Assembly: GCA_964370925.1 (NCBI GenBank) | Contig: CAYJLH010000004.1 | Location: 3,167-67,166 of the forward strand | Source: an uncultured Oscillospiraceae bacterium | GTDB taxonomy: Bacteria > Bacillota > Clostridia > Oscillospirales > Oscillospiraceae | Length of the DNA stretch: 64,000 nucleotides | Direction of reading: 5' to 3' | Shown: one piece after another, positions 44-32,421 of the stretch | How positions within the stretch are numbered: the first letter of the stretch is position 1 | How the letters are laid out: each line of letters begins with the position of its first letter | Notes under the pieces: generated by a model | Databases searched by the model: none | What the model saw: only the letters and a program-made list of their open reading frames with translations | What the model was told of the DNA's origin: nothing | Made by a program: the position numbers and the translations under genes

Positions 44-298
44 GTATTCGTTAAATGCTGTGAAGAGAAGTAGTATCAAGCTTTTTTGCGTTTCAGAGAG
101 GCGATGTTTGGTGAAAATCGCCCGTAAATACTTGAGAAGTCGTCTCCGAGCTTTGTCGGTGAATTTTATGTAGCCAACAACGTATATTCTGCGTTAAAGA
201 ATTCGAGTGCGGAAATTTTATTTTTCCGAACACAGGTGGTACCACGGTATTTTTTAAAATTATCGCCCTGAGATTTTCTCGGGGCTTTTTTTATTTTT
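44..298 (+). ncRNA. T-box riboswitch leader, valine (GUC) specifier
   Basis: AGAGAG bulge and GGTGAAA distal-loop motif (~95-115). Specifier context GAGAA-GUC-G with GUC at 139-141. T-box core GGTGGTACCACG at 235-246. Terminator GCCCTGAGA/TCTCGGGGC at 265-285 plus T-run. Directly upstream of valS. Confidence 0.85.
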
Positions 299-319: not shown

Positions 320-2941
320 ATGAAAGAACTTCCAAAGATTTACGACCCTAAAGCGGTTGAAAAAAAAATCTATGATATGTGGGTTAAAGGTGGTTATTTT
401 AAGGGCGTTATCGACCCCGAAAAGAAACCTTTTACTATAGTTATCCCACCACCAAATGTCACAGGTCAACTGCATCTTGGACATGCTTTTGACGAGACTA
501 TACAAGACGTTTTAACACGTGTTAAGCGTATGCAAGGCTATTCTGCGCTTTGGATTCCCGGAACTGACCACGCAGGCATAGCAACTCAAATCAAGGTCGA
601 AGAGGAACTTCGTGTTAAAGAGGGAAAAACTCGTTACGACCTCGGACGTGAGGCATTTTTAGAGCGTGTTTGGGATTGGAAGCACAAATACGGTAGCCGT
701 ATTGTCGAACAACTTAAAACTCTTGGTTGCTCATGTGACTGGGATAGAGAGCGCTTTACTATGGACGAGGGTTGCTCAAAAGCTGTGCGCGAAGTTTTTG
801 TTTCACTTTACGAAAAAGGGCTTATTTATAAAGGCAATCGCATTATCAACTGGTGTCCAACTTGCACAACTGCACTTTCTGATGCTGAGGTTAACCACGA
901 AGAAAAACCCGGTAACTTCTGGCACATTAAATATCCAATAAAAGACAGCGACGAATTCTTAATAATTGCCACCACTCGTCCCGAAACTATGCTCGGTGAC
1001 TCCGGTGTCGCTGTTAGCCCCGACGACGAGAGATATGCTCATCTAATCGGCAAAACATGCATACTTCCGCTGATGAACCGTGAAATGCCTATCATCGCCG
1101 ACGAATATGTTGACAAAGAATTTGGTACAGGTTGCGTTAAAATGACACCTTGTCATGACCCTAATGACTTTGAAGTCGGTCAACGTCACAATCTTGAGCA
1201 AATCCTTATCATGGATGAAAACGCTAAGATTATCAACGGCGGAAAATATAACGGCATGGACAGATACGAAGCTCGCCGTGAAATTATAAAAGACCTTGAA
1301 GAACTTGGTTTGTTAGTTAAAATAGAGCCACATAACCACAATGTCGGCACATGCTACCGCTGTGGAACTGTTGTCGAGCCTATCACAAGCCCACAATGGT
1401 TTGTTAAAATGGAACCTCTTGCGAAAGAAGCTATGGAAGTTGTTCGTGACGGGCAGATTAAATTTGTACCTGACCGCTTCGTAAAAACTTATGAAAATTG
1501 GATGGAAAATGCTCATGACTGGTGCATTTCTCGTCAACTTTGGTGGGGACATCGTATCCCTGTTTGGTACTGCTCAGACTGCGACCACATGACAGTTTCT
1601 CGTGAAGATGTCTGCGAATGTGAAAAATGCCAAAGCAAAAATATCGAGCGTGATGAAGATGTTTTGGACACTTGGTTCTCTTCTGCGCTTTGGCCTTTCT
1701 CAACTTTGGGCTGGCCTGATAAAACACCTGATTTAGATTATTTCTACCCAACTGACGTCCTTGTCACAGGTTATGATATTCTATTTTTCTGGGTTGCTCG
1801 TATGATTTTCTCTGCCAATGAGCACACAAAACAAGTGCCTTTCCACACTGTATTTTTCCACGGATTAATCCGTGATGCAGAGGGCAGAAAAATGAGTAAG
1901 AGCCTTGGAAATGGCGTTGACCCACTTGATGTCATCGACACTTACGGCGCTGACGCACTGCGCTTCAACATCATCACAGGCAACAGCCCAGGAAACGACA
2001 TGCGCTATTATAACGAGCGTTGTGAGGCTATGAGAAACTTTGCAAATAAGGTCTTTAATGCTTCTCGTTTCGTTATGATGAACCTTACAATCGAGAAAAA
2101 CGAGCTTCCCGAAAAACTTGAACTTGAGGATAGATGGATTTTATCAAAACTCAATACTCTTGCAAAAGATGTCTGCGACAACTTCGACAAATACGAGCTT
2201 GGAATTGCCGCCGGTAAAATTTATGACTTCATTTGGGACAGCTATTGTGACTGGTATATCGAGCTAATCAAACCACGTCTAAACGGTGACGACAAAGAAC
2301 TAAATCTTTCCGCTCAAAAAGTTATGCTTTATGTTTTGACAGAAATTTTGAAGTTACTACACCCATTTATGCCTTTCATCACAGAGGAAATTTGGCAAGC
2401 ACTCCCCCACGAGGGCGAGGCACTTATGATAGAGCGCTATCCGGAATTCACAGAAAAACTAAACTTCCCACAGGACGAAACTGACTTCGAAACCATCATG
2501 TCTGCTATACGCTCTGTTAGAAGCACACGTGCTGAAATGAATGTTCCTCCATCCAAAAAACCAACTTTGATTATCGTAACAGAGAAAACAGCTGTGTTTG
2601 AAAAAGGCCTAGTTTTCCTATCAAAACTTGCATATGCAGGTAGCGTTGAAATCTCAACAACTGCACCCGAAAGCCTCGACGGAATGGTTAGCGTCGTGAC
2701 TGATGAGGCGAAGATGTTCATGCCAATGGCAGAGCTTGTCGACCTCGACAAGGAGCGTGCGAGAATTCAAAAAGAAATCGAAAAAGCCGAAAAAGAGCTT
2801 GCAATGCAAGAGGGCAAACTGAAAAATGAAAAATTCATTTCAAAAGCGCCCGAGAATATAGTTGCTCAAGAGCGTGAAAAAGCCGAGAAAACAAAAGCAC
2901 TTCTTGAAAACCTCAAAGAGAGCTTAAAAAACCTAGGTTAA
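320..2941 (+). CDS. valS: valyl-tRNA synthetase
   Basis: 873-aa ORF. HIGH-type motif ([13 protein letters not shown]), KMSKS ([10 protein letters not shown]), C-terminal coiled coil. GGAG RBS. Preceded by a Val T-box. Confidence 0.98.
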
Positions 2942-2985
2942 TCGACAACTTTCGAGAGCTTTTTAACTAAATAATGTATAAAATA

Positions 2986-3016
2986 ACACTGTGCAAAATC
3001 GCACAGTGTTTTTTTA
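2986..3016 (+). terminator. rho-independent terminator after valS
   Basis: ACACTGTGC-aaaatc-GCACAGTGT followed by a T7 run. Confidence 0.8.
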
Positions 3017-3055
3017 TACAAAAAATTTCACATACATTCAGAAAGCGGTGAATTA

Positions 3056-3385
3056 ATGAAAATTACATCAAGTAGAAATGACGGGCATCTCTATATTTTT
3101 TTATCTGGAGAGTTAGACCACCATGGAGCAAAGGATGGATTTGTAAAAATCTCAGCCATTTTGGACGAATACATGCCACAAAGTTGCATAATTGATATGT
3201 CAGGACTAACTTTTATGGACAGCTCAGGCATCGCTTTGGTGCTTCGAGTATATAAAACTGTTTCAAATTACGGCGGTGCGACCATGGTCCAAAATCCTTC
3301 AAGGCAACCGTTTAAGGTCTTGGAAGCGGCAAAACTTGAAAGAATTGTAAAAATATTATGTACAACAGCGGAGGGCGAAAGATGA
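3056..3385 (+). CDS. spoIIAA: anti-sigma-F factor antagonist (STAS domain)
   Basis: 109 aa. STAS pattern (FMDSSGIALVLRV). First gene of the conserved spoIIAA-spoIIAB-sigF order. ATGA overlap with the next gene. Confidence 0.9.
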   Translation: MKITSSRNDGHLYIFLSGELDHHGAKDGFVKISAILDEYMPQSCIIDMSGLTFMDSSGIALVLRVYKTVSNYGGATMVQNPSRQPFKVLEAAKLERIVKILCTTAEGER

Positions 3386-3825
3386 ACAAACTAAACTATA
3401 TAAGACTAGAAATTCCAAGTAAAAGTATTAATGAATCCTTTGCGAGGGCAGCGGTTGCGTGCTTTGCGGCACAAACCGACCCTACGCTTGAGGAATTAAA
3501 TGACATAAAAACAGCAGTTAGTGAGGCAATCACCAACTGCATTGTACATGCCTATCCCGAAGAAATCGGCAAAATTTTACTTAAGGCGACAATTTACGAA
3601 GATAACAGCATCGAAATCATCATCCGTGATTGGGGTAACGGAATTTCCGATATTACTAAGGCTCGTGAGCCGATGTTCACAACAGGTGGCGACGACAGGA
3701 GCGGAATGGGTTTTACAATTATGGAGAGTTTTATGGACGAGCTTAAAGTTCGTTCGACAAACGGACGTGGCACGACGGTGACACTCAGACGAAAAATCAC
3801 CAACAGAGGAAAGAGAGCTGAATGA
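3382..3825 (+). CDS. spoIIAB: anti-sigma-F factor / serine kinase
   Basis: HATPase-type motifs EAITNCIVHAY, DWGNGI, SGMGFTIM. Start placed at ATG 3382 (ATGA overlap with the spoIIAA stop) instead of ORF-track 3358. Confidence 0.9.
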   Translation: MNKLNYIRLEIPSKSINESFARAAVACFAAQTDPTLEELNDIKTAVSEAITNCIVHAYPEEIGKILLKATIYEDNSIEIIIRDWGNGISDITKAREPMFTTGGDDRSGMGFTIMESFMDELKVRSTNGRGTTVTLRRKITNRGKRAE

Positions 3826-4526
3826 CGTCAAACGAAGAGCTAATCCGTGCCGCACAACAGGGCGACAACGACGCTATGGAGGCAGTTGTCACCGAAAACA
3901 CCGGTCTTATTTGGAGTGTTGCTAGGAGGTTTTGCGGTCGTGGTGTTGACCTTGACGACCTCTATCAGCTCGGTTGTGTTGGTTTTATTAAAGCGGTGCA
4001 AGGCTTTGACGAGAGCTATGGCACTCGCTTTTCCACCTATGCTGTGCCAAAAATTTCGGGTGAAATTCGCAGATTTTTGCGAGATGACGGCAGTGTTAAA
4101 GTCAGCCGTGGCATAAAAGAGCGTGCAAATGTTATCCGAACCGCACGAAATGTGCTTGAGCAAAAACTGGGAAGAGAGCCTACAATCTCAGAGATTTCAG
4201 AAGAAACCGGTCTTGATATCGAAGAAATTGCAATCGCCGAAACCGCCACAGGACCGACAGAATCGCTCAACCGTGAAAGCGGCGAGGACGGTTTCACTCT
4301 TGAGCATGTCTTGGGAGATTTTAACCAGGAGGAGCGTATGCTCGAGCGTGTCGCTCTCAAAGAAGCGCTTGCTGTGCTTTCTGAACGGGAACAAATGGTT
4401 ATTTCTTTGAGGTTTTTCCATGGACTTACACAGGATAAGACAGCGAAATCTTTGGGTGTTTCTCAGGTTCAAGTTTCTAGGCTTGAGAGGAAGGCTTTGG
4501 TGGCATTACGGGAGTTTTTGGAGTAA
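3822..4526 (+). CDS. sigF: sporulation sigma factor F
   Basis: 234-aa sigma-70 family (FSTYAVPKISGEIRRFLRD; TQDKTAKSLGVSQVQVSRLERKAL). Overlaps the spoIIAB stop. Operon context. Confidence 0.9.
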   Translation: MTSNEELIRAAQQGDNDAMEAVVTENTGLIWSVARRFCGRGVDLDDLYQLGCVGFIKAVQGFDESYGTRFSTYAVPKISGEIRRFLRDDGSVKVSRGIKERANVIRTARNVLEQKLGREPTISEISEETGLDIEEIAIAETATGPTESLNRESGEDGFTLEHVLGDFNQEERMLERVALKEALAVLSEREQMVISLRFFHGLTQDKTAKSLGVSQVQVSRLERKALVALREFLE

Positions 4527-4556
4527 TTTTATCTATGCAAGAACGTGTCTCCGACG

Positions 4557-4584
4557 GTATACTTTTTGAAACCAAAAAGTATAC
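4557..4584. repeat. left terminal 28-nt palindrome (12-bp stem, loop AAAC)
   Basis: GTATACTTTTTG AAAC CAAAAAGTATAC. Confidence 0.9.
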
Positions 4585-4981
4585 AAAAAGTTTCGGGGGT
4601 TTCGTCCCCCGAGCGCCGAAGAGGCGGAAAGGGTGCTGAGAAAGCCACAAAAAAAGTTTGCAAACCCAGAAGCAGTTGCAAACGCACGAAAATATTCATA
4701 ATCCACGGCTATCGCCGCCTCAGCCCGCATCTACTCACTTGCAAAACTTAAAAAGAAAAGCGTATCTTTTTGCGAACTAAATCCCAAGTACAGGCTGACC
4801 TTGCGACTTGTCGCAAATGCGGGGGTATTCCAAAAGGGGGTCAGGCGACCCCCTTTGGTCGCTGGGGTGAGGATTTTTAAGGAGAGGGGAATCACGAAAT
4901 TCCCTCTCCTTAAACGTGTCTTTGCTTACTTTCTGCTCGTACAGAAAGTAAGTCATCGAAGATTATCCTCTACTAATATTT

Positions 4982-5009
4982 GTATACTTTTTGGTTTCAA
5001 AAAGTATAC
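4982..5009. repeat. right terminal 28-nt palindrome (12-bp stem, loop GTTT), exact reverse complement of 4557-4584
   Basis: GTATACTTTTTG GTTT CAAAAAGTATAC. Confidence 0.9.
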
Positions 5010-5050
5010 CCACGGAGTGAACTATTTCAATATCATAAAAAAGGATAAAT

Positions 5051-6682
5051 TCAATTACCTTGTTTCTCTAACGCCGCTCCAACAAGCCCCAAAAACAAAG
5101 GATGCGGATTATTCGGTCTGGTTTTAAACTCAGGATGAAATTGCACTGCCACAAAATAGCTATGCTCTTTTATTTCAACGGCTTCAACTAAACTTCCATC
5201 GGGCGATAAACCTGAAATCAAAAGTCCTTTTTCCGCCATCACTTCCCTATATGAATTATTAAACTCATATCTGTGTCTGTGTCGCTCTGAAATGCTCTTT
5301 TTCGCATACAGTTCCCTCATTTTGCTGTTGTCTTGCAACTCACAAGGGAAAGCTCCAAGGCGCATTGTGCCACCTTTTTCGTTAATATTTATCTGTTCCT
5401 CCATTATGTGAACAACGGGATGCGGCGATATTTCGTCAAATTCTGTCGAATGTGCTTTGTCAAGTTTACATACATTTCTAGCGAATTCAATCGCAGCAAC
5501 TTGCATCCCAAGACAAATCCCAAGAAAAGGCAAATCATTTTCTCTCGCATATTTGCAAGCAGAAATCATGCCCTCAACTCCCCTGTCACCAAAGCCACCG
5601 GGGAGTACCATTCCGTCAACGTCGCCAAGCTCTTCGGCGACATTTTTTTCTGTCAAAAATTCGCTGTCGACCCACTTAATTTCTATTTCTGCACCCTTAC
5701 CATAACCTGCGTGCTCAAGTGCTTCATTGACTGAAAAATACGCGTCGTGGAACTGAACATATTTCCCAACCATCGCAATTCTAACCTGTCTTTTTCGATT
5801 TGCGATTTTTTGGAGCATCTCTTTCCACTCCCTTAAATCACAGTCGTTAGCTTCGATTTCAAACTCACGGCAAACAACCTCATCCAAACCTTTTTCATGT
5901 AGCATTATCGGCGCTTCGTAAAGACATGGAAGAGTATAATTTTCTATGACGCAGTCGGGTTTTACATTGCAAAACATAGATATTTTTTGGAGAATACTGG
6001 GGTTAATCGGCTCGTCAGCTCTCGCTACGATTATGTCAGGTGAAATACCTATAGAGCGCAGTTCTTTGACCGAGTGTTGAGTTGGTTTCGACTTATGTTC
6101 TCCACCGCCTTTTAGATATGGAACTAGGGTCACATGGATAAAAAGACAGTTCGTTTTTCCAACTTCAAGTGCAACTTGTCTTATAGTCTCTAAAAACGGT
6201 TGGCACTCGATATCACCTGTCGTCCCACCTATTTCGGTAATTAAAACATCCGCTCCACTTTGCTCTGCACCGGCATAAATGAACTTTTTAATTTCGTTTG
6301 TAATATGCGGAATTACTTGAACAGTTTGCCCTAAATACCCACCTTTTCTTTCACGACTGAGAACATTATCATAAACTTTTCCCGAAGTCAAATTTGAAAG
6401 TTTTGATAGATTTTCATCTATAAAACGCTCATAATGCCCCAAATCAAGGTCAGTTTCAGCACCGTCATCAGTTACATAAACTTCGCCATGTTGAAATGGA
6501 CTCATAGTTCCGGGGTCAATGTTCATATAAGGGTCGAGTTTTTGAGCTGTCACTTTTAAGCCTCTTTGCTTCAAAAGTCTGCCCAAACTCGCTGCCGTAA
6601 TTCCTTTGCCCAAACCAGAAACAACACCGCCGGTTACAAATATAAATTTAGTATTTCTCTGCTTATTATCACTTGTTTTCAT
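5051..6682 (-). CDS. pyrG: CTP synthase
   Basis: 543 aa. [17 protein letters not shown]-terminus. C-terminal glutamine amidotransferase ([15 protein letters not shown]). Confidence 0.97.
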
Positions 6683-7250
6683 ACAATTTTAAAATCCCCT
6701 CTGCTATTGCTCGCCTTGTCGACCGTGAATCCATCGCCTGTCTTTCTATATACTTGTGTGCCTCCTGCTCGGACATGCTCAAATAAGAAACAAGCACATG
6801 TTTCGCCCTGTCGACTATCCTAATATCTTCAATTTTTTGTACTAACTTTTGGTTTTCTTTTTGCATTTGCGACATTCTTCTATGTGCTGCCCTCGCAAGT
6901 TTTAATGAAAACCAGAACATATTTTTATTTATCGGTTTGGCAACAGTTATAACTCCATAATCTTCAACCAATTCCGATATTTCTTCATAATGCTCACTTT
7001 TTACGATTAATATAACAGTGCTTTTACTTTGTGTTGCAATGAAAGTCGAAAGTTTCTCACCTGATTCGTCTTTCATCGGCGCATTGATAACAACTAAGTC
7101 GAAATCCTGTCCTTGAATTAACCGTCTAGCCTCTGAACCGCTGGTGACAGTCACTATTCTTTCAAGTGAAAAATCTTTCAATGTGTCACTCACAAAAGCT
7201 GTTCCCTTTTCAAATCCGGATACTATAAGAGCCGTTTCAATAACTTCCAC
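6669..7250 (-). CDS. ANTAR-domain RNA-binding antiterminator with pseudo-receiver domain
   Basis: C-terminal ANTAR pattern ([43 protein letters not shown]). The receiver-like N-terminus has Asn at the acceptor position (DLVVINAPM) and no DD pair. Located downstream of glnA. Confidence 0.85.
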
Positions 7251-7276: not shown

Positions 7277-8596
7277 TTAATATTGATTAAAATAATTCGC
7301 TTTTACAAACAGTTCTTTATCGCTTGCATTTTCAAGCTCAAGGATTTCATCCGCTTTAATATCTGAATATTTTGACAGTAATTCCTCACCCAAAACCGCC
7401 TTTACAAGCTCAGATTTTTCCGCAATTTTAATCGCTTCAATAAGATTTTCGGGAAGTTTTCGCATTTTTTTCGAAGTATCCGCATTCAATTCCCTGATTT
7501 CTATATCGGTAGGCGCAGGCAGTTTCAACCCATTTTCCATGCCATATAATCCCGCTCCTATGATGAGCGCAAAGGCAATATATGGATTTATAGTTGGGTC
7601 AGGCGAGCGAAGCTCCATTCTCATTCTATCGCCCGACGCTGTTGGAATTCTCACAAGTTGCGACCTATTTTGAGCCGACCACGACACATAAGACGGGGCT
7701 GCTAGTTTTCCAAATCTGTCATATGAATTTATAGTCGGATTTAAAAACAGAGTTATCTCTTCAATTTTTTCAAGCACGCCGGCAACAAAGCTCTCGGCAG
7801 CTTCGCTTAACATTTCGTCCTTTGATCCGAAAATATTTTCACCATTTTTGAAAAGAGAAATGTTTACATGAAGTCCGCTTCCGCTATAATCTTTCAGTGG
7901 TTTTGGCATGAATGATGCGAAAAGTCCATTTCTCGCCGCTATGGCTTTCACGACAGATTTAAAGGTCAACAGATTGTCAGCACAACTTAGCGCATCGCTG
8001 TATTTAAAGTCAATTTCGTTTTGTCCTGGCCCTTTTTCATGGTGAGATGCCTCGGGTTTTAGTCCCATTTCCTCGAGGTTTAAGCAAATATCTCGTCTGA
8101 TATTCTCACCCTTATCGAGCGGTGATATGTCGAGGTAACTACCATAATCTAAGGTGTCATAGGTTGGGTTTGAGTCGTCATCAGTTTTAAATAAGTAAAA
8201 CTCACACTCAACACCGATTTTGCAAACATAGCCTTTTTCCTCAATTTGCTGTAACACTCTTTTTAATATGTATCTGCTGTCCTGAGAAAAAAGCTTCCCG
8301 TCAGGAGTTTTAATATCGCAGTAAAAACGCAAAACCCTCCCCGGTCCCGGTCTCCATGGCAAAACAGTTAATGTATCAGGATCTGGAAACAAAAGAAGGT
8401 CTGATGTCGTGATATCTTTAAATCCGTGTATGGACGATGCATCAAAAGGCACACCGTTTTCGAAAGCGTGTCCCAGCTCTTCGGACATAAGCGAAATGTT
8501 CTTGTGTACTCCAAACGGGTCACAAAAGCTCAGCCTAACAAATCTTACGTCATTTTCTCTTACGAATTGCAGGACCTCTTTCACTGTACTATTCAT
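7277..8596 (-). CDS. glnA: glutamine synthetase, type I
   Basis: 439 aa. Motifs GSGLHVNISL and NRSQLVRIP. Length and N-terminal beta-grasp are typical of GSI. Confidence 0.95.
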   Translation of the reverse strand: MNSTVKEVLQFVRENDVRFVRLSFCDPFGVHKNISLMSEELGHAFENGVPFDASSIHGFKDITTSDLLLFPDPDTLTVLPWRPGPGRVLRFYCDIKTPDGKLFSQDSRYILKRVLQQIEEKGYVCKIGVECEFYLFKTDDDSNPTYDTLDYGSYLDISPLDKGENIRRDICLNLEEMGLKPEASHHEKGPGQNEIDFKYSDALSCADNLLTFKSVVKAIAARNGLFASFMPKPLKDYSGSGLHVNISLFKNGENIFGSKDEMLSEAAESFVAGVLEKIEEITLFLNPTINSYDRFGKLAAPSYVSWSAQNRSQLVRIPTASGDRMRMELRSPDPTINPYIAFALIIGAGLYGMENGLKLPAPTDIEIRELNADTSKKMRKLPENLIEAIKIAEKSELVKAVLGEELLSKYSDIKADEILELENASDKELFVKANYFNQY

Positions 8597-8715
8597 AAAT
8601 CCCTCTCCTCACATTATTAAAATCGTCATAAAAGCGAAAAACGCCCATCAAAACGCAGAAAGAGGCAAAGCCCTCCCCCTGATATGTTTGATGAACGCCC
8701 TTGTTCATTGCTGTC
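8597..8715 (-). promoter_or_regulatory. glnA 5' leader with hexaloop hairpin and terminator-like structure (candidate ANTAR target)
   Basis: RNA sense: ATGAAC-AAGGGC-GTTCAT (8691-8708). Its 3' arm overlaps CATCAAA, which pairs with TTTGATG (8646-8652). That pairing encloses a 10-bp hairpin (8656-8681) and is followed by GGGCGTTTTTCGCTTTT. Confidence 0.45.
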
Positions 8716-8744
8716 AGTATACATGTTTTATCAGTATTTGTCAA
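8716..8744 (-). promoter_or_regulatory. glnA promoter
   Basis: Minus strand: TTGACA (8744-8739), 17 nt, TATACT (8721-8716). Confidence 0.6.
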
Positions 8745-8766
8745 TAAATAATTACTATCTTTTCTG

Positions 8767-8785
8767 TGTAATTCTAACAATTACA
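8767..8785. promoter_or_regulatory. 19-bp perfect palindrome between divergent glnA and asnA promoters (candidate operator)
   Basis: TGTAATT-ctaac-AATTACA. Confidence 0.3.
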
Positions 8786-8835
8786 ATGTATATTAGGCTA
8801 ATTTCAAAAAATTCAGGTTTTTTTCAAAAAAGCTA

Positions 8836-8864
8836 TTGACAAGGCACAATTACTGTGATATACT
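8836..8864 (+). promoter_or_regulatory. asnA promoter
   Basis: TTGACA 8836-8841, 17 nt, TATACT 8859-8864. Confidence 0.6.
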
Positions 8865-8874
8865 TCGGGACATG

Positions 8875-8919
8875 ACAGCAAAGGCGCTGTGAGCTTATGG
8901 CTCGCAGTGCCATTTTTTT
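8875..8919 (+). terminator. leader terminator/attenuator upstream of asnA with overlapping hexaloop hairpin
   Basis: 12-bp stem GGCGCTGTGAGC (8883-8894) / GCTCGCAGTGCC (8900-8911) with 2 G-U pairs, then A+T7. The alternative hairpin ACAGC-AAAGGC-GCTGT (8875-8890) uses the 5' arm. Confidence 0.7.
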
Positions 8920-8938
8920 ATATTTGAAAGGGGCCATC

Positions 8939-9943
8939 ATGAGTATTTTAGAACAAAAAGACTACACTTCCGCATTATCATTGTATTCAACACAAAAAGC
9001 AATCGGAGCACTGAAGAGGATTTTCGAAGATAACTTGGCTCAAGCTTTAAATCTAACACGAGTTTCAGCTCCTCTTATCGTTGAGCCACACACAGGACTA
9101 AACGATGACCTTAACGGTATCGAGCGTCCAGTTGAATTCGATATTAAAGCAACAGAAACTAATGCACAAATCGTTCACTCTCTTGCAAAATGGAAGAGAA
9201 TGGCACTACATAAATACGGCTTCCCTGTCGGCGAAGGATTATACACAGACATGAACGCAATTCGCCGTGATGAGGACATGGACGCACTTCACTCTATATA
9301 TGTTGACCAATGGGATTGGGAAAAAGTTATTGATTTAGAGACTAGAACTGTGGTAACATTGAAAGATATTGCAACAAAAATCATCAATTCAATTTGCGAT
9401 ACACAGGATAAACTCAAAGCTCTATACCCTGAGCTTAAAACAACACTTACTAAAGAAATCGCTTTTATAACAACTCAAGAGCTTGAGGACATGTACCCAG
9501 AGTTAACATCCAAAGAGCGCGAGAATACATATCTAAAAGAACATAAAACAGCATTTGTTATGCAAATCGGCGACAAACTTAAATCCGGTGAAAAGCATGA
9601 CGGCAGAGCGCCTGACTATGACGACTGGTCACTAAACGGCGACATTCTTTTCTGGAACGAAACTTTGCAACAGGCTTTTGAAGTTTCTTCAATGGGTATC
9701 AGAGTTGACCCCAAGGCAATGGATGAGCAGCTCGCAAAAGCAAACTGTGACGACCGCCGTGAAATGCCTTTCCACAAAGCACTTCTAAATAATGAACTCC
9801 CACTTACAATCGGTGGCGGTATCGGTCAATCAAGACTTTGTATGTTATTACTTGAAAAAGCACACATCGGTGAAGTCCAAGTTTCTATCTGGGACAATAA
9901 AACAAAAGAATCATGCGCAAAAGCAGGAATTATATTACTATAG
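8939..9943 (+). CDS. asnA: aspartate-ammonia ligase (asparagine synthetase A)
   Basis: AsnA pattern (VDQWDWEKVI, SSMGIRVD, GGGIGQSRLCMLLL). Start moved to ATG 8939 (RBS GAAAGGGG), because ORF-track start 8897 lies in the terminator loop. Confidence 0.93.
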   Translation: MSILEQKDYTSALSLYSTQKAIGALKRIFEDNLAQALNLTRVSAPLIVEPHTGLNDDLNGIERPVEFDIKATETNAQIVHSLAKWKRMALHKYGFPVGEGLYTDMNAIRRDEDMDALHSIYVDQWDWEKVIDLETRTVVTLKDIATKIINSICDTQDKLKALYPELKTTLTKEIAFITTQELEDMYPELTSKERENTYLKEHKTAFVMQIGDKLKSGEKHDGRAPDYDDWSLNGDILFWNETLQQAFEVSSMGIRVDPKAMDEQLAKANCDDRREMPFHKALLNNELPLTIGGGIGQSRLCMLLLEKAHIGEVQVSIWDNKTKESCAKAGIILL

Positions 9944-9955
9944 GAGAAGATAATA

Positions 9956-12046
9956 ATGAATAATATTCCTAATATGTTTGGTTGCAAAGTTTTTAACGAT
10001 AATGTTATGCGTACCAGACTTCCAAAAGACGTTTACAAAGCACTTCATAAAACTATTGCTGAAGGAAAACAGCTCGATGTTAAAGTTGCAAATGTTATCG
10101 CCACTGCTATGAAAGAGTGGGCAGTTGAAAACGGCGCAACTCACTACACTCACTGGTTCCAACCCATGACAGGGTCAACCGCTGAAAAGCATGATAGCTT
10201 TATTTCTCCTATTAATAATTGTGAAATTATTATGGAGTTTTCAGGTAAAGAGCTTGTTCGTGGTGAACCCGATGCATCAAGCTTCCCCTCTGGTGGACTT
10301 CGTGCGACTTTCGAAGCTAGAGGATACACAGTCTGGGACACAACTTCTTATGCTTTTATAAAAGACGATTCCCTCTGTATCCCAACAGCTTTCTGCTCAT
10401 ACAGCGGTGAGTCGCTCGACAAAAAAACTCCTCTACTACGTTCTATGGAAGCTATTAACAAGCAAGGTTTGCGTATTATCAAGCTTTTCGGTAATAGCAC
10501 TGCAAAGAGAATTATCACAACAGTTGGTGCTGAACAGGAATATTTTCTCGTAGACAAAGAAGTTTATCTAAAACGCCCCGACCTTATAAACTGCGGTAGA
10601 ACTTTATTCGGCGCTCGCCCTCCCAAGGGTCAAGAGCTTGAAGACCACTACTTCGGTTCTATAAAACCAAGAGTTTCGGCTTATATGAAAGAGCTTGACG
10701 AAGAACTTTGGAAAGTTGGCGTTTTCTCAAAAACAAAACATAACGAGGTTGCTCCGGCTCAACATGAGCTTGCGCCCGTTTTCACAACAACTAACCTAGC
10801 GACTGACCAAAACCAAATCACTATGGCACTTATGAAAGACATCGCCCAAAAGCACGGACTTGTTTGTCTTTTACATGAAAAACCCTTTGCTGGGGTTAAT
10901 GGTAGCGGTAAGCACAATAACTGGGCAATTTCGACAGATACAGGTATTAATCTACTTGAACCAGGTGAAACACCTCATGAAAATGCTCAATTCCTATTGT
11001 TCCTAACTGCAATCATCAAAGCCGTTGACGTTTATCAAGACTTGCTCAGAATTTCTGTTGCAAGTGCCGGAAACGACCACAGACTGGGCGCTAACGAAGC
11101 TCCCCCTGCTATTGTTTCTATCTTCCTCGGCGATGAACTTACTGAAATTTTAGACGCACTAAAAAGTGATTCTGATTACGAAGGTAAAGAGCGTATCCAA
11201 ATGGAAATCGGCACAACCGTTCTTCCTCCGTTCCCAAAAGACACAACAGACCGCAACAGAACTTCACCTTTTGCTTTCACAGGCAATAAGTTTGAGTTCA
11301 GAATGCTCGGTTCTTCAATTTCAATCGCAGGTGCAAACATCATCCTAAACTCTGCTGTTGCAGAAATTTTCGAAGAGTTTGCAGATACACTTGAAAAAGC
11401 AGACGATTTCAAATCGGCTCTTACAAAACTTATTAGAGACACAATCAATAAGCACGACCGTATTATTTTCAACGGAAATAACTACTCTCAGGAGTGGGTT
11501 GAAGAAGCAAAAAGACGTGGTCTATCTAACCTACAGACAACTGTTGACGCTCTTCCAACTTTCCGCAGTGAAGAGAGCAAGAGAATGTTTGCTAATCAAT
11601 GTGTTTTCTCTGGTACAGAAATTGATGCGAGATACGAAATCCTTATGGAGGGCTATTGTAAGACCATACATATTGAGGCTCTCACAATGATTGACCTTAC
11701 TAAAAAGGAAATTTTGGCTTCATCTTTTGAGTATCAATCAGAACTTGTTACACTTTTAAACGGCAAAAAAGCAGTTGGAATTGACACAAGCTCAGAGGAA
11801 GCACTTGTTAAGAAGCTAACAGCTTTGACAAAAGATTTGCTTGCAAAAGTCGATCTACTCGAAACAAATGTCATGAAAGCGTCTGAAACTTCAAATGACA
11901 TTTTAGCTCACGCACAGTATTACAGAAATTCTATTTTCTCTGTCATGAATGAACTTAGACTAGTAGTCGACGAGTTGGAAACCATAGTTGCAAAGAAGCA
12001 CTGGAAATTCCCCTCATACATGGAACTACTATACAGTGTAAACTAG
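9956..12046 (+). CDS. glnN: glutamine synthetase, type III
   Basis: 696 aa, the GSIII length class. Motifs NEVAPAQHELAPVF and NGSGKHNNWAIS. Confidence 0.92.
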   Translation: MNNIPNMFGCKVFNDNVMRTRLPKDVYKALHKTIAEGKQLDVKVANVIATAMKEWAVENGATHYTHWFQPMTGSTAEKHDSFISPINNCEIIMEFSGKELVRGEPDASSFPSGGLRATFEARGYTVWDTTSYAFIKDDSLCIPTAFCSYSGESLDKKTPLLRSMEAINKQGLRIIKLFGNSTAKRIITTVGAEQEYFLVDKEVYLKRPDLINCGRTLFGARPPKGQELEDHYFGSIKPRVSAYMKELDEELWKVGVFSKTKHNEVAPAQHELAPVFTTTNLATDQNQITMALMKDIAQKHGLVCLLHEKPFAGVNGSGKHNNWAISTDTGINLLEPGETPHENAQFLLFLTAIIKAVDVYQDLLRISVASAGNDHRLGANEAPPAIVSIFLGDELTEILDALKSDSDYEGKERIQMEIGTTVLPPFPKDTTDRNRTSPFAFTGNKFEFRMLGSSISIAGANIILNSAVAEIFEEFADTLEKADDFKSALTKLIRDTINKHDRIIFNGNNYSQEWVEEAKRRGLSNLQTTVDALPTFRSEESKRMFANQCVFSGTEIDARYEILMEGYCKTIHIEALTMIDLTKKEILASSFEYQSELVTLLNGKKAVGIDTSSEEALVKKLTALTKDLLAKVDLLETNVMKASETSNDILAHAQYYRNSIFSVMNELRLVVDELETIVAKKHWKFPSYMELLYSVN

Positions 12047-12073
12047 TTTAAATCATACAAAAGAATACAAAAA

Positions 12074-12133
12074 GCACAATGACGTGTATTTTCCGAATTA
12101 ATTTTCGGGAACTACACGTCTAATTTTATTTTT
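12074..12133 (+). terminator. intercistronic terminator/attenuator between glnN and amtB
   Basis: Long hairpin GACGTGTA...TACACGTC (12081-12120) with inner TTCCGAA/TTCGGGAA pairing, then TAATTTTATTTTT. The hexaloop hairpin GCAC-AATGAC-GTGT (12074-12087) overlaps its 5' arm. Confidence 0.65.
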
Positions 12134-12146
12134 GGAGGTATTTATT

Positions 12147-13826
12147 ATGTTCTCAGCAGTTGATACAATTTGGACCTTACTAGCCGCCGCATTGGTTTTT
12201 TTCATGCAGGCTGGATTTGCAATGGTGGAAACAGGCTTTACAAGAGCAAAAAACGCCGGTAACATCATCATGAAAAACATCATGGACTTTTCACTGGGCA
12301 CTCTTATGTTCTGGCTAATCGGTTTTGGCTTAATGTTTGGCGGTGATGGAGCATTTATCGGTGGTTTCGACCCCTTTATCAGAGGCGATTATAGCTCATC
12401 TATCCCAACATCAGCTTTCGTAATATTTCAAACAGTTTTCTGTGCAACAGCTGCAACCATCGTTTCGGGTGCAATGGCAGAGCGCACAAAATTTTCAACC
12501 TACTGCATGTACAGCGTTATTTTAAGTGCTATTGTCTACCCAATTTCAGGTCACTGGATATGGGGCGGCGGTTGGCTTTCACAGCTAGGATTTCATGATT
12601 TTGCCGGCTCAACAGCCGTCCACATGGTTGGTGGTGTTGCCGCTTTAATCGGCGCAAAAACTCTTGGTCCTCGTATAGGAAAATACACTAAAGACGGAAA
12701 ATCAAAAGCTATCCCAGGGCACAGCTTAACTCTTGGCGCATTGGGCGTTTTCATTCTTTGGTTCTGCTGGTTTGGATTTAACGGTGGTTCAACCGTTTCA
12801 ATGACAGACGGTTCTATAGAAGCAGCATCAAACATTTTTGTAACCACAAACATAGCTGCCGCTGCAGCAACAGCAGTTGTAATGGTCATCACATGGGTTC
12901 GCTACAAAAAACCTGACGTTTCAATGACATTAAACGGCGCTCTTGCCGGTCTTGTTGCAATCACAGCAGGCTGTGACGTAGTCACTCCAGCAGGTGCATT
13001 CGCAATTGGTATTATAGCTGGTTTCGTTGTCGTATTTGGAATCGAATTTGTTGACAAAGTTCTAAAAATTGACGACCCTGTCGGCGCTGTCGGAGTTCAC
13101 GGCATGGCAGGTGCTGTTGGTACTATCTTAGTCGGTGTGTTCGCCGTTGACGGTGGTTTGCTATATGGCGGTGGGTTTGCTTATCTTGGTGTGCAAACTA
13201 TCGGTGTTCTAGCAGTTATCGCTTGGGTTTCTGTCACAATGTCTATCGTTTTCACAGTTCTTAAAAACACTGTTGGACTACGTGTTACACACGCAGAAGA
13301 AATTGCCGGTCTTGACATTGAGGAACATGGACTATCAAGCAGTTACGCAGACTTTATGCCTGTTCCAATGGGAACAAACTTCAAACGCAGTGAAGATATT
13401 GAAGAAATCCCAGTCGCAGCAGTTGACGTTGACGAGGCTGTCCCTGTAATTAACACAGCAAAAGCAGGCACAAAAATGTCTAAAGTCGTTATTGTCACAA
13501 GTCAGACCAAGTTTGAAACGCTTAAAAAAGCCTTAGACGGGCTTGGAATTACAGGTATGACTGTAACTCAAGTTTTGGGTTGCGGTATGCAGAAAGGCTC
13601 TACAGCGCTTTACCGCGGTGTTCCGGTAGAGACAAAACTTCTTCCCAAAATCAAAATCGAGATTGTTATATGCAAGGTACCGCTATTGCTTTTCATTAAC
13701 ACAGTTAAAAAGGCACTATACACTGGCAACATCGGCGATGGAAAAATCTTCATCTATGACGTTGAAAATGTAATTAAAGTCAGCACAGGCGAAGAGGGAT
13801 ATGAAGCTCTTCAAGACATAGTTTAA
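12147..13826 (+). CDS. amtB: ammonium transporter fused to a C-terminal P-II (GlnK/GlnB-like) domain
   Basis: Amt multi-TM core (FAMVETGFTRAKN, HMVGGVAALIGA, DPVGAVGVHG). A ~50-aa linker. P-II domain (MSKVVIVT...GMTVTQVLGCGMQKGSTALYRG...GDGKIFIYDV). One uninterrupted frame. ATG 12147 after GGAGG. Confidence 0.9.
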   Translation: MFSAVDTIWTLLAAALVFFMQAGFAMVETGFTRAKNAGNIIMKNIMDFSLGTLMFWLIGFGLMFGGDGAFIGGFDPFIRGDYSSSIPTSAFVIFQTVFCATAATIVSGAMAERTKFSTYCMYSVILSAIVYPISGHWIWGGGWLSQLGFHDFAGSTAVHMVGGVAALIGAKTLGPRIGKYTKDGKSKAIPGHSLTLGALGVFILWFCWFGFNGGSTVSMTDGSIEAASNIFVTTNIAAAAATAVVMVITWVRYKKPDVSMTLNGALAGLVAITAGCDVVTPAGAFAIGIIAGFVVVFGIEFVDKVLKIDDPVGAVGVHGMAGAVGTILVGVFAVDGGLLYGGGFAYLGVQTIGVLAVIAWVSVTMSIVFTVLKNTVGLRVTHAEEIAGLDIEEHGLSSSYADFMPVPMGTNFKRSEDIEEIPVAAVDVDEAVPVINTAKAGTKMSKVVIVTSQTKFETLKKALDGLGITGMTVTQVLGCGMQKGSTALYRGVPVETKLLPKIKIEIVICKVPLLLFINTVKKALYTGNIGDGKIFIYDVENVIKVSTGEEGYEALQDIV

Positions 13827-13830
13827 ACAT

Positions 13831-13863
13831 AAAATCCGCTCAAATTTCTTTGAGCGGATTTTG
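13831..13863 (+). terminator. rho-independent terminator after amtB
   Basis: AAAATCCGCTCAAA...TTTGAGCGGATTTT. Confidence 0.85.
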
Positions 13864-14047
13864 CTGTAGAAAACATATTTCGGGGGAGCTTGAGGGGGCG
13901 AAGCCCTCCTCAAATTGGATAAACCGATGTCATTTTCATGTGTGTAATGCACGAAAATGAGCCACTAGGCATTATTTTTCGCAGAAAAATAATCATCGGC
14001 AACTTGCTCGAAAAGTCCTAAAGGATTTTTTGGACAAGCTGAAATAA

Positions 14048-15676
14048 CTAAGATTTTGGTATAATACCATACCCATTTGCGAGTGCATAGTCATGAGCAT
14101 ATGTTCCCACATTACAGCGAATATCGACTTCCATTGCACCCATGCTAAAACCTGTGTCCAATCTACCCTCAATGTTGACAACACTATCAGGTAAGTCGAT
14201 TATGATATCTTCTTGTCCACTAAACATGAATGCACTTCTTCCTATTTCTGTAACACCCTCTGGAACTATAATTTCATCAGGGTCTTCCTTTTGGATGATG
14301 ATAACATAATTACTTGCAATTCGTTTGACTTCCGGAAGATAAACTATCTTCTCGCCATACTCAACAACGTAGTGAACAAGGTTGCTGTCACCAATTATCC
14401 ACGAAGTTCTACCGCCGATATAGTTATCATAATACCAAGCACTGTAAACAAATGAATCACCCGTAACATCAGTCAAACTGTTTGGAATGTATAGTTCATG
14501 CAAGGATTCGCACCCAGAAAAAATATCATCACCCGCAGTGGTCATGCCCTCGGGCAAATATGCCGCTTGCAATTTTTCACTGCCATAAAATGCCTCGTCC
14601 GATATTGATTTTAGGTTGGTTGAAAAAGTCACAGTTGTCAAACTGTCATTTTTGTAAAATGAACGCACACCAATTCTCTCGACAGTGTTTGCCATTACAA
14701 CAGTTTCTATGGATTCATTTTCCAAAAATGCAAAGGCATCTATAACTCTAATCCCCTCGGGAATTGTAATATTTTTACTACTTCCGACATATTTAACCAA
14801 GACATCGTTTATTATAACCATTCCATCTTGTGCATCGCCAATCGGATAATCAGAAAAATCGAAAGATGCTATACCTAGCTTCAAGTTTCGCGGAATATCT
14901 TGTAACGCCCAGCCACTGTAAGCCATTTGGTCTGAAAGACTGTCTTCGTTCCAATGGCTAAACGCAAAGTCGCCGACTTCTTCAAGTGTAGATGGCAAAT
15001 CACCAAAAACTATACTATCTTCGTCTGCATCATAACCACTGAAAGCTCGATTTCCTACATATTTCAGACCCTCATTTAATTTGGCATACTCCAAACTATA
15101 GCAACTGAAAAATGCGTAATCGCCTATAGATTCAAGGGTTTCTGGGAAAATTACCGCCGTTATATAGTCATCATAGAATGCATATTCGGGAATGTGTTTT
15201 GCACCCTCAGGGATGACTAAAACTGCATAATCAGGTACTTCCATAGGAATTACATTTCCATTTTCATCGATTTCAGCCGTAAATTGCTCACGGCTTGCAT
15301 ACTCAGACGGAATTCCTGTCTCATCTTCTACAGGCTCTTGTATAGCCACTTCTTCTGAATAATCAACAGTTTCAGATGTAAATATACCCATAATAGACGA
15401 GAAATTGGACATTATAGCAAAAAATGCAATCAAAAATACAATTGAAACTAAAGGATTTCTTTTCTTGCTTTTAGAACCAGCTTTTGTATTTTTCATTCGC
15501 TCTTTTTCCTCAGCTAGTTCTCTTGCTCTTCTTGCCAGTTCTTGAACTTCATCAAAATCTTTTTGTTTTTGGCTTTTTTCTTTTCCAAAATCTACTGTGT
15601 GAAGTCCGCCACAACCTGGGCAAACTCCCTCACTTTTCTTTTCGTTAAAACTTCTTCCACACCAATCGCAATTCAT
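14048..15676 (-). CDS. membrane-anchored BspA-type leucine-rich-repeat protein with N-terminal zinc ribbon
   Basis: CDWCG...CPGCGG, one TM segment, then repeated IPEG..xIgxxAF modules (IPEGVTEIGRSAF, IPEGIRVIDAFAF). Confidence 0.7.
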   Translation of the reverse strand: MNCDWCGRSFNEKKSEGVCPGCGGLHTVDFGKEKSQKQKDFDEVQELARRARELAEEKERMKNTKAGSKSKKRNPLVSIVFLIAFFAIMSNFSSIMGIFTSETVDYSEEVAIQEPVEDETGIPSEYASREQFTAEIDENGNVIPMEVPDYAVLVIPEGAKHIPEYAFYDDYITAVIFPETLESIGDYAFFSCYSLEYAKLNEGLKYVGNRAFSGYDADEDSIVFGDLPSTLEEVGDFAFSHWNEDSLSDQMAYSGWALQDIPRNLKLGIASFDFSDYPIGDAQDGMVIINDVLVKYVGSSKNITIPEGIRVIDAFAFLENESIETVVMANTVERIGVRSFYKNDSLTTVTFSTNLKSISDEAFYGSEKLQAAYLPEGMTTAGDDIFSGCESLHELYIPNSLTDVTGDSFVYSAWYYDNYIGGRTSWIIGDSNLVHYVVEYGEKIVYLPEVKRIASNYVIIIQKEDPDEIIVPEGVTEIGRSAFMFSGQEDIIIDLPDSVVNIEGRLDTGFSMGAMEVDIRCNVGTYAHDYALANGYGIIPKS

Positions 15677-15723
15677 TTAACTTCTCCGTTTTCTTATTTA
15701 AAAATCACTGTTTTACCGAATTT

Positions 15724-15753
15724 GAGTGGATAGGCTAAATTACCTATCCACTC
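15724..15753 (-). terminator. hairpin downstream of the signalling operon
   Basis: GAGTGGATAGG-8 nt-CCTATCCACTC (11-bp perfect stem). No clean U-run on the minus strand. Confidence 0.45.
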
Positions 15754-15759
15754 AATAAT

Positions 15760-17292
15760 TTAAAATTGTGCTATAAATCTGTCTAAAATGACTGCCATTT
15801 CAGCGCGAGTTAGTAGTTTATCAGGAGCTAAAAGTCCCTCGTCAGTACCTTTTACTATGCCAGCGGAAACGGCCCACTGCATAGCCTGAACCGACCAATC
15901 AGGCAGGCTTGAGGCATCCGAAAATTCATCAAGAGTTGCCACTTCAAAATCTTCCATTCCCAAATCAATCCCGTAGCGATATAGGAAAGTTACGCATTGC
16001 GCTCTTGTGAGTGAATCATTTGGCAAAAATCTATCCCCGTCGCCCTGTGCAATTTCTGTAAATGCCGCCCATTTCGCAGCTTTTTCATAGTATGAATTTG
16101 CCTCCAAATCGGAGAAGCTCACGCTTCCATCAATGACAGTATTTGGACGAAGTGCTGTTTCAACTCTTGAGAGCGAGGTAATGAACATCGCACGATTTAC
16201 AGTTGAATTCGGTGAAAATTCACCACCACCTGTGCCATTTACAATTTTATCAGCACTGATTTCAGCAACGGCAGAAGCAAACCAATCACTTGCATTGACA
16301 TCACTAAAAGTAGTATTATTAGCGCTTAAATCTAAAGTGTTAACCATATTAGTGAAGCTATCTGCGATATAAAGTTCGTCGTCTACAAGCGCTAATCCAA
16401 CCGGGTTTACAGGCGATAGACCATCTTCAAATCCACCTGTCAAAATCACCGTTTCAGCTCTGCCATCGACAATTTTTCTAACCGCACCATTTCCACTATC
16501 CGAAATGTACAATTCTCCATCATTTGCTATAACTTCTATAGGAGCAGAGAAAAGTGCATTTTTGCCGTTTATAAATCCGTCAATGCCCTCTGTAGAGCCT
16601 GTCAAAGTTGTAACAACTCCATCTTCAATTGCACAAATGCGGTTATTTTCAGTGTCAGCCACATATAAAATTCCATTTTCGTATTCAAGCCCTGTTGGTG
16701 AATTGAAAAGTGCGTCGTCGACGTCTCCATCTGCCCTACCCGCTTCATTTGGTGTTCCTGCAAAGAGTGTAACTTTGCCGTCAGTGTCCATTTTTCTTAT
16801 AACATGGTTGCCACTGTCAGAAATATACACGTTACCCTCTTCATCAACTGCAAGACCTGTCGGGCGGTTGAATTCAACGTCACGGCGTGTTCCATTGCTG
16901 TAACCCTCGTCACTGCCAGCGATTAGTTCAACTGTTCCATTTTCGAGATTTAGCAGTCTAATTCTATGGTTTTCGCTGTCACTAATTGCGTATCCGTCAC
17001 CATATTCCACAATATCCCAAGGAGAGAAAAATCTCGCCTCTTCAACAGTTCCATCTCTATAACTGCCCGAGGGTGTTCCATCAGCATTAGTAGCTCCAAG
17101 CGCACCGGCAATTACTGTAAACTCACCATTTTCAAGTTGCCAAATTTGATGATTATATGTATCTGTAATAATCATACTCCCATCACTGTCAGCTAAAATT
17201 GACGAAGCCGAAATAGGCGTTTCTGCTGCCAAAGTTGTCACACTTCCGACCAAACCTATGGCAAAAGCAGTGGATAAAATTGTCTTTTTCAT
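15760..17292 (-). CDS. secreted NHL-repeat protein with C-terminal SLH (S-layer homology) domains
   Basis: Signal peptide. NHL-like repeats (SDSGNHVIRKMD, ADTENNRICAI, SDSENHRIRLL). Three SLH-like segments (FSDV..WFA.., FSDL..YYEKAAKWA, FSDA..WSVQAMQWA). Confidence 0.8.
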   Translation of the reverse strand: MKKTILSTAFAIGLVGSVTTLAAETPISASSILADSDGSMIITDTYNHQIWQLENGEFTVIAGALGATNADGTPSGSYRDGTVEEARFFSPWDIVEYGDGYAISDSENHRIRLLNLENGTVELIAGSDEGYSNGTRRDVEFNRPTGLAVDEEGNVYISDSGNHVIRKMDTDGKVTLFAGTPNEAGRADGDVDDALFNSPTGLEYENGILYVADTENNRICAIEDGVVTTLTGSTEGIDGFINGKNALFSAPIEVIANDGELYISDSGNGAVRKIVDGRAETVILTGGFEDGLSPVNPVGLALVDDELYIADSFTNMVNTLDLSANNTTFSDVNASDWFASAVAEISADKIVNGTGGGEFSPNSTVNRAMFITSLSRVETALRPNTVIDGSVSFSDLEANSYYEKAAKWAAFTEIAQGDGDRFLPNDSLTRAQCVTFLYRYGIDLGMEDFEVATLDEFSDASSLPDWSVQAMQWAVSAGIVKGTDEGLLAPDKLLTRAEMAVILDRFIAQF

Positions 17293-32268: not shown

Positions 32269-32313
32269 AAAAAAATCCTCCTCATTTTTGAATAATATTT
32301 CGATTTTACGTAA

Positions 32314-32390: not shown

Positions 32391-32421
32391 CCATATCAAA
32401 TAAGCTCGGATTTATAGTACT

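Follow-up and report, generated by a model that had tools for sequence, protein, structure and literature searches.

A single-hexaloop asnA leader as a probable ANTAR-type transcription attenuator in a clostridial nitrogen-assimilation regulon

Results

The asnA gene, encoding an aspartate-ammonia ligase, lies in a 64,000-nt stretch of DNA from an uncultured Oscillospiraceae bacterium (contig CAYJLH010000004.1), the whole of which is hereafter called the window. Its short leader contains a promoter, a small hairpin with a six-nucleotide loop (a hexaloop) and an intrinsic terminator that overlaps this hairpin. We consider it likely that transcription through this leader is controlled by protein-dependent attenuation of the ANTAR type and that the leader belongs to a small nitrogen-assimilation regulon, which comprises asnA and glnN (type III glutamine synthetase), amt-PII (an ammonium transporter fused to a P-II domain) and the operon glnA-ANTAR-pyrG, which encodes a type I glutamine synthetase (GS), an ANTAR protein and a CTP synthase. 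An earlier note on this DNA had suggested protein-mediated attenuation, with the ANTAR protein as the obvious candidate. The computational tests reported here, namely the ranking by a model built from published substrates, the linkage of the genes and the conservation of the leader, support this suggestion without proving it.

Architecture of the asnA leader

The asnA promoter (8836-8864, plus strand) consists of TTGACA at 8836-8841, a 17-nt spacer and the extended -10 element TGaTATACT at 8856-8864, with TG at 8856-8857 and TATACT at 8859-8864. In a promoter scan, it scored 11 matches out of 12 in addition to the extended -10, in agreement with the TTGACA-17-TATACT promoter read there by the earlier note. 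Within 8000-13000, the only other site with 11 matches out of 12 was the divergent glnA promoter (8744..8716). Judging from the conserved promoter spacing, transcription of asnA should start at about 8870-8872. Ten nucleotides separate the -10 box from the predicted antiterminator hairpin, ACAGC-AAAGGC-GCTGT (8875-8890, plus strand), in which a 5-bp stem (ACAGC at 8875-8879 and GCTGT at 8886-8890), ending in a closing C-G pair, carries the loop AAAGGC (8880-8885). Its six-nucleotide loop with A1 (8880) and G4 (8883), on a stem of at least 3 bp, has the features of an ANTAR hexaloop, and the ANTAR protein is predicted to bind this hairpin.

The terminator (8883-8919, plus strand) has a 13-bp stem at 8883-8911, made up of 12 pairs plus a closing U-G, 8 of them being G-C. 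The stem is followed by A8912 and seven U residues (8913-8919), so that a G+C-rich stem-loop runs into A plus U7, as in an intrinsic terminator. Both structures had been placed at these positions in the earlier note, and only the closing U-G pair is an addition. Segment 8883-8890 is common to the two: G4, G5 and C6 of the loop, together with the 3' arm of the hairpin, form the lower 8 bp of the terminator, and the two structures are mutually exclusive. The ribosome-binding site GAAAGGGG (8926-8933) and the start codon ATG 8939 stand just 3' of the terminator. As had also been pointed out, no plus-strand gene lies upstream of the leader, where the neighbour is the minus-strand glnA.

For the 80-nt leader, the folding energy is -31 kcal/mol, with z = -4.1 relative to shuffles. 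The terminator accounts for -24.3 kcal/mol, and the antiterminator hairpin alone reaches -5.8 to -6.6 kcal/mol. At transcript lengths of 20-33 nt, the predicted structure is the hexaloop hairpin, which folds first and is displaced by the 13-bp terminator once 8907-8911 have been transcribed. If the hairpin is held, 8 of the 13 terminator pairs are lost, leaving a stub of 4-5 bp at 8 nt from the U tract.

The earlier note had also drawn attention to an in-frame ATG at 8897. It does lie in the terminator loop, 42 nt upstream of ATG 8939 and in frame with it. A functional role did not hold up: this ATG has no ribosome-binding site, is missing from the related loci L109 and L110 and from the remaining orthologous leaders, and is irrelevant to control. 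The exact 334-aa AsnA starting at 8939 was not found in the protein collection; gene callers may have taken ATG 8897 as the asnA start, which would add 14 spurious residues.

Match to published ANTAR substrates

A covariance model of 16 positions (R1) was built only from 13 of the published EutV/NasR substrate hairpins, the consensus of which is nnnnC-AAAGGC-Gnnnn (Ramesh 2012, PMC3369931, Fig. S1). The invariant core of the nitrogen-leader hairpins described below equals this consensus. R1 was run with filters off on both strands of the 64-kb window (128 kb). The asnA hairpin ranked first, with 20.2 bits and an E-value of about 0.009, a figure that is rough for a model of this length, the ranking being the evidence. 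The glnA hairpin came second (18.1 bits) and the amt-PII hairpin seventh (13.7 bits). In 231 kb of loci with ANTAR homologues, the best 13 matches were all nitrogen-assimilation leaders, and in 633 kb of AsnA loci, six of the seven matches of at least 19 bits were these leaders.

The third-best match in the window, GCGACC-AAAGGG-GGTCGC (4846-4861, minus strand, 16.9 bits), lies past pyrG, in the 3' untranslated region, where an alternative hairpin without a U tract, CCAAAGGGGGTC/GACCCCCTTTGG, overlaps it. This match could be due to chance or be a decoy site like EutX. The matches at 57481-57496, 10551-10566 and 6557-6572 are within coding sequence, have no terminator and were taken as chance. 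The last of them (minus strand, 16.2 bits), in the 5' coding end of pyrG, also occurs in the closest relative (L109, 5787-5802), probably as a result of coding conservation.

Conservation of the leaders across related genomes

We compared 80 loci of AsnA relatives, 28 metagenome loci with relatives of the ANTAR protein and three contigs with its closest homologues. The asnA leader recurs in L002 (Herbinix hemicellulosilytica), L005, L016, L024, L109 and L110, all of which retain the asnA-glnN synteny, and a degraded copy is present in L001. The recurrent layout is a -35/-10 pair, 10-12 nt, the hairpin (A/G/T)CAGC-AA[ACG]GGC-GCTG(T/C), the terminator and a U tract. In these six loci and in L099, the promoter pair is spaced alike, 10-12 nt separating the end of the -10 from the hairpin. 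Hairpins of the asnA type also precede glnN in L099 and amt-PII in L092, and leaders equivalent to the amt leader of the window were found at 11885-11900 of L092 and 7565-7580 of L024. In an alignment of 10 asnA-type leaders, the 5' arm and the loop are near-invariant; variation is found 5' of the hairpin and at the top of the terminator, where the loops have 2-6 nt and no conserved bases. Pairing in the terminator helix reaches 96.7% across the 10 orthologous leaders and is accompanied by 14 double-sided changes; none of 500 shuffles matched this. The comparison of asnA leaders across genomes, proposed in the earlier note, has therefore shown that orthologous leaders keep both the hairpin and the terminator.

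A second type of hairpin, (A)TGAAC-AA[AG]GG[CA]-GTTCA(T), precedes glnA in L111 and the operon of the split glutamate synthase (GOGAT) in L001, L005, L016, L024, L088, L091, L092, L096-L099 and L110. In L110, the GOGAT operon continues into glnA, the ANTAR gene and pyrG. The adjacency of glnA and the ANTAR gene, often followed by pyrG, was observed in more than 15 loci, and the linkage of the ANTAR gene to the asnA leader is kept in L109 and L110. Both in the window and in its relatives, the ANTAR gene belongs to an operon under a glnA or GOGAT leader. In the window, its open reading frame (ORF; 6669-7250, minus strand) sits 1.6 kb from the asnA leader, in the divergent operon.

The window itself contains three leaders of one design, before asnA, glnA and amt-PII. 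The loop family had already been suspected to be shared with the glnA leader, and this is the case: the AAGGGC hairpin of glnA overlaps a terminator, and a third copy of the arrangement precedes amt-PII. The glnA leader (8630-8744, minus strand) has a TTGACA-17-TATACT promoter of the same type as that of asnA (8744..8716), and its hairpin, ATGAAC-AAGGGC-GTTCAT (8708..8691), starts 7 nt past the -10 box. The outer helix of its terminator (8700..8642; -30.2 kcal/mol) uses the loop and the 3' arm of the hairpin, encloses an inner hairpin and is followed by U tracts at 8641..8637 and 8633..8630. The amt-PII attenuator (12074-12133, plus strand) is internal to the asnA-glnN-amt operon, 28 nt past the glnN stop and just before the amt-PII start. 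It combines the hairpin GCAC-AATGAC-GTGT (12074-12087) with an overlapping terminator, GACGTGTA...TACACGTC (12081-12120, -22.6 kcal/mol), and a U-rich tail. A 9-mer, TGACAGCAA, shared after the -10 box by the asnA and glnA leaders of the window (8865-8880; 8715-8700, minus strand), was discarded as a probable coincidence, given that it is not conserved in the glnA and GOGAT leaders of other loci.

A total of 918 kb was scanned for hairpins with overlapping terminators. Those in which the hexaloop was AA[ACG]GG[CA] numbered 23, compared with 0-2 (mean 0.9) in ten dinucleotide shuffles. Among all hairpin-plus-terminator candidates with an A..G.. loop, AAAGGC was found 16 times and AAGGGC four times, every other loop appearing at most three times. 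The 3' part of the hairpin overlaps the 5' arm of the terminator in all 21 curated cases. Stems differ by operon class (CAGC, GAAC, CACAC, GCAC) around an invariant C-AA.G..-G core, and 13 related hairpins all have A1, A2, G4 and the closing C-G pair. Taken by itself, the eight-base core CAANGRCG is about as common in the window as chance predicts (17 matches, with 12.9 expected), indicating that the signal is the hairpin-plus-terminator context. A site at 4063-4076 of L089 may be a translational variant of the same control.

The ANTAR protein

The product of 6669-7250 contains an ANTAR domain scoring 50.5 bits, against a cut-off of 27.3 for PF03861. Its structural homologues include Rv1626 (5e-13), AmiR, EutV and NasR. 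In the EutV-RNA complex, Tyr164 stacks on G4, Met172 acts as a plug and Arg175 binds the backbone (PMC8934654). These residues align with His165, Met173 and Arg176 of the ANTAR protein, which are invariant across 112 homologues; AmiR likewise has a His at the position equivalent to Tyr164. In the receiver domain, the phospho-acceptor Asp is replaced by Asn56 in 111 of the 112 homologues, and the acidic pair after beta-1 is replaced by Ser/Thr. No kinase gene is adjacent to the ANTAR gene, according to the Pfam annotation of the neighbourhood. The protein thus lacks the features of the phosphorylated receiver of a two-component response regulator and is a pseudo-receiver, as is AmiR, with an input signal that must be other than phosphorylation at the canonical Asp. 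Asn56 implies that a partner protein or a ligand, and not a kinase, would exert the control.

One hexaloop instead of two

The accepted ANTAR target consists of two tandem hexaloop hairpins, P1 and P2, and deleting either of them abolishes EutV action (Ramesh 2012, PMC3369931). A 2025 review gives ANTAR targets as dual hairpins only. The EutV dimer contacts one hexaloop at a time, and the minimal binding motif has been redefined as a single hexaloop (Walshe et al. 2022, PMC8934654). Two hexaloops are still required for antitermination, and it has been suggested that sites with a single hexaloop might be confined to cases without a race with the polymerase (PMC8934654).

The asnA leader does not have the tandem arrangement, as no second R1 match of at least 9.8 bits is present in 8800-8940. 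Nor, in any of the 10 asnA-type leaders (asnA, glnN and amt, with the CAGC stem), is another A..G.. hexaloop carried by a stem of 3 bp or longer, either upstream or between the hairpin and the U tract. The -10 box ends 5-8 nt before most glnA-type hairpins and 10-12 nt before the asnA-type ones, and at such short distances the hairpin should begin within a few nucleotides of the 5' end. For asnA, the predicted distance is 3-5 nt, with no room for an upstream P1. A possible second hexaloop, GAC-AAAGGT-GTC, in the GOGAT leaders of L097 and L098 was considered and rejected, being mismatched in relatives and absent elsewhere, including every asnA-type leader. It is located 6 nt after the first hairpin, about 22 nt past the hairpin at 1994 in L097 and 1962 in L098. 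Its counterpart in L088 and L091 is GAC-A[GC]AGGT-GCC, with a mismatch.

Alternative explanations

Several observations weigh against an ANTAR-dependent attenuator, in addition to the rough E-values of R1. The covariation of the stems across operon classes is inflated, since a stem was a search criterion in the scan that supplied most of these hairpins. The leader is present in only five of the 80 AsnA loci, which makes it a property of a particular lineage and not of asnA generally, and in L002 the leader is present, but within 4 kb there is no ANTAR gene. Moreover, EutV antiterminates only when both hairpins are present, in vitro as well as in vivo (PMC3369931, PMC8934654), so that with one hexaloop some additional, unseen help may be required. 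The locus without a nearby ANTAR gene, the atypical receiver domain of the ANTAR protein and the fact that a single hexaloop is not an accepted ANTAR substrate (PMC3369931) would also fit an attenuator of the same construction worked by another trans-acting factor (a different RNA-binding protein, a P-II or GS complex with a direct action on the RNA, or a small RNA), the ANTAR protein serving other targets. We regard this as unlikely, because the loop and closing pair match validated ANTAR substrates and head the ranking of an independent model, the ANTAR gene sits within an operon bearing the same hairpin, and the RNA-contacting Met, Arg and His are invariant in the 112 homologues. Alternatively, the structures could be unregulated, with a leaky terminator or a 5'-terminal stabilizing hairpin setting a constitutive level and the alternative hairpin being incidental. 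Strong promoters followed by partial terminators do occur, and the hairpin is weak (-6 kcal/mol) beside the terminator (-24 kcal/mol). Against this, conservation is higher in the 5' arm, which lies outside the terminator, and in the loop than at the terminator top; the same loop recurs on different stems in three operon classes, all devoted to ammonium assimilation; and the 23 cases compare with about one in shuffles. Such a reading is improbable.

The inverted repeat CAGC-N6-GCTG (about +4 to +20) is perfect and close to the promoter, and in many Firmicutes, glnA is under GlnR/TnrA. It might, therefore, act at the DNA level, as the operator of a dimeric factor such as a roadblock repressor or a TnrA/GlnR-like protein. 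However, it is the half-sites that vary (CAGC, GAAC, CACAC, GCAC) and the asymmetric spacer AAAGGC that stays constant, whereas a palindromic operator would show the opposite, and it was on this ground that we rejected the operator. The repeat is, in addition, always oriented with transcription and always overlaps a terminator, and one copy is intra-operonic, 28 nt past the glnN stop. The TnrA/GlnR box TGTNAN7TNACA, with at most one mismatch, is absent from 7734-9491, and its count over the whole window is that expected by chance. These results leave the operator very little probability. Hardly any attaches to a metabolite riboswitch, a T-box or a leader-peptide attenuator starting at ATG 8897. 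Glutamine riboswitches exist in other phyla, and the ATG is indeed in the terminator loop, but the terminator is preceded by only some 12 nt, in which neither an aptamer nor a T-box would fit, which bears out the view of the earlier note that the leader is too short for a conventional riboswitch. The search of the whole window with Rfam 15 gave no match at gathering score near the asnA leader, and 8560-8980 yielded only snoRNA noise, and no riboswitch or T-box family, at E-values up to 10. A leader peptide was rejected because ATG 8897 lacks a ribosome-binding site and is absent from L109, L110 and the other leaders. An ANTAR-dependent attenuator is, in our judgement, the reading that these data favour.

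Gene neighbourhood

Gene identities in the neighbourhood were assigned by Pfam. On the plus strand, asnA (8939-9943; AsnA, 1.1e-105) starts at the position equivalent to that of its orthologues, and the closest matches of its product, from uncultured Bacillota and Herbinix, share 73-74% identity. It is co-transcribed with glnN (9956-12046; GSIII_N, Gln-synt_C and Gln-synt_C-ter), which is followed by amt-PII (12147-13826; Ammonium_transp and P-II). The true start of amt-PII is ATG 12147, after GGAGG, and not the TTG at 12132 given by the ORF finder. On the minus strand, glnA (7277-8596; Gln-synt_C and Gln-synt_N) is directly followed by the gene for the ANTAR protein with its pseudo-receiver, which is NitR/AmiR-like (6669-7250; ANTAR, 50.5 bits, and Response_reg, 32 bits). 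The start of pyrG (5051-6682; CTP_synth_N and GATase) overlaps the ANTAR gene by 14 nt, and pyrG is probably the last gene of the glnA-ANTAR-pyrG operon.

Some features outside this system were also recorded. In L111, the glnA-ANTAR pair is flanked by a defence cluster of the McrBC/SduA type and a prophage tail and lysis module (545-5209 and 10811-16582). In the window, a T-box leader (51-273, plus strand, 143.9 bits) lies upstream of a valyl-tRNA-synthetase-like gene (320-2941), and a molybdenum/tungsten cofactor riboswitch (32319-32423, minus strand, 45.8 bits) lies upstream of an aldehyde:ferredoxin oxidoreductase gene, listed as an ORF at 30463-32394, the true start of which is probably further downstream.

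Discussion

ANTAR proteins are widespread regulators of nitrogen metabolism. The mechanism that we propose for the asnA leader is co-transcriptional. A strong sigma-70-type promoter would start the RNA 3-5 nt before ACAGC-AAAGGC-GCUGU, and the hexaloop hairpin would fold first, at about -6 kcal/mol. If nothing holds it, G4, G5 and C6 and the 3' arm would be drawn into the 13-bp terminator (-24 kcal/mol), and transcription would stop at the U7 tract, about 50 nt after the start. When active, the ANTAR protein (6669-7250) would bind the hexaloop and its closing pairs and thereby block the lower 8 bp of the terminator, so that RNA polymerase could continue into asnA-glnN; the decision would be repeated before amt-PII. 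That the asnA hairpin is bound by this particular ANTAR protein is what we infer from the combined evidence, and activation under nitrogen limitation may be expected by analogy with NitR of Clostridium saccharobutylicum.

A broader proposal, which we put forward tentatively as possible rather than probable, is that single-hexaloop ANTAR antiterminators exist as a natural class, to which these leaders belong and in which one hexaloop at the extreme 5' end suffices in vivo and a phosphorylation-independent pseudo-receiver reads nitrogen status through a partner, most plausibly the adjacent glutamine synthetase or P-II. If this were true, the dual hexaloop would not be a defining feature of ANTAR control, and searches that assume it would have overlooked much of the clostridial nitrogen regulon or described it wrongly. 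In practice, a search for ANTAR targets should admit a single hexaloop overlapping a terminator. The structure of EutV with RNA has left a puzzle, in that one hexaloop is contacted at a time and yet both are needed. Compact and conserved leaders, in which a single hexaloop is apparently sufficient during transcription, provide a simple setting in which the purpose of the second hairpin can be studied. The leaders also outline an ammonium-assimilation regulon of a large group of gut and rumen Clostridia that would include GS I, GS III, AsnA, the split GOGAT, Amt-PII and possibly CTP synthase.

The asnA leader shares several properties with the targets of EutV (eut genes of E. faecalis and Listeria), NasR (nasF of K. 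oxytoca) and AmiR (amiE of P. aeruginosa). All have hexaloops with A1 and G4 and a closing C-G pair, and loops such as AAAGGC and AAUGGC are identical between those targets and the leaders studied here. In all of them, the hairpin that overlaps the 5' arm of the terminator is the antiterminator, and the regulator has an ANTAR domain. Unlike those targets, the asnA leader has the terminator-overlapping hairpin only, and has it at the extreme 5' end. No description of a natural single-hexaloop antiterminator was found in the literature examined, which was incomplete and lacked Stutz 2007. With respect to the regulator, AmiR is a pseudo-receiver ANTAR protein controlled by AmiC, and NasT is controlled by NasS. 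The ANTAR protein of the window resembles AmiR and NasT in its receiver-like domain without a phospho-acceptor. It differs from them in having no AmiC- or NasS-like gene adjacent, its conserved neighbours being glnA and pyrG. One protein-stabilized hairpin overlapping a terminator is also the principle of the ribonucleic antiterminator (RAT) of BglG, SacY and LicT. Their protein, however, is unrelated (CAT domain), and the RAT is 29-30 nt long with internal loops.

The closest parallel in gene content is the glnA-nitR and gltAB cluster of Clostridium saccharobutylicum, which has the same gene neighbourhood, with the ANTAR gene directly after glnA. NitR, the ANTAR protein encoded there, has been reported to act by antitermination of GS/GOGAT genes under nitrogen limitation (Stutz 2007, cited in PMC6316151). 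A similar cluster, Clo1313_2030-2036, exists in C. thermocellum (PMC4676874). The texts examined mention neither asnA-glnN and amt-PII as targets nor a single hexaloop at the 5' end (PMC6316151, PMC4676874). Table S2 of Ramesh 2012 lists ANTAR-RNA matches overlapping terminators before genes for glutamine synthetase, glutamate-synthase-like proteins, ammonium transporter/P-II and 'asparagine synthase' in Clostridia and relatives. The theme of the regulon is the same, but those matches were found with a dual-hairpin model, and the organism of the window was not included. What was, thus, already known or predicted (Stutz 2007; Ramesh 2012, Table S2) is the theme of the regulon and the control of an asparagine synthetase gene by ANTAR, whereas this asnA leader, the layout of a locus with three attenuators and the architecture of a single hexaloop at the 5' end are new.

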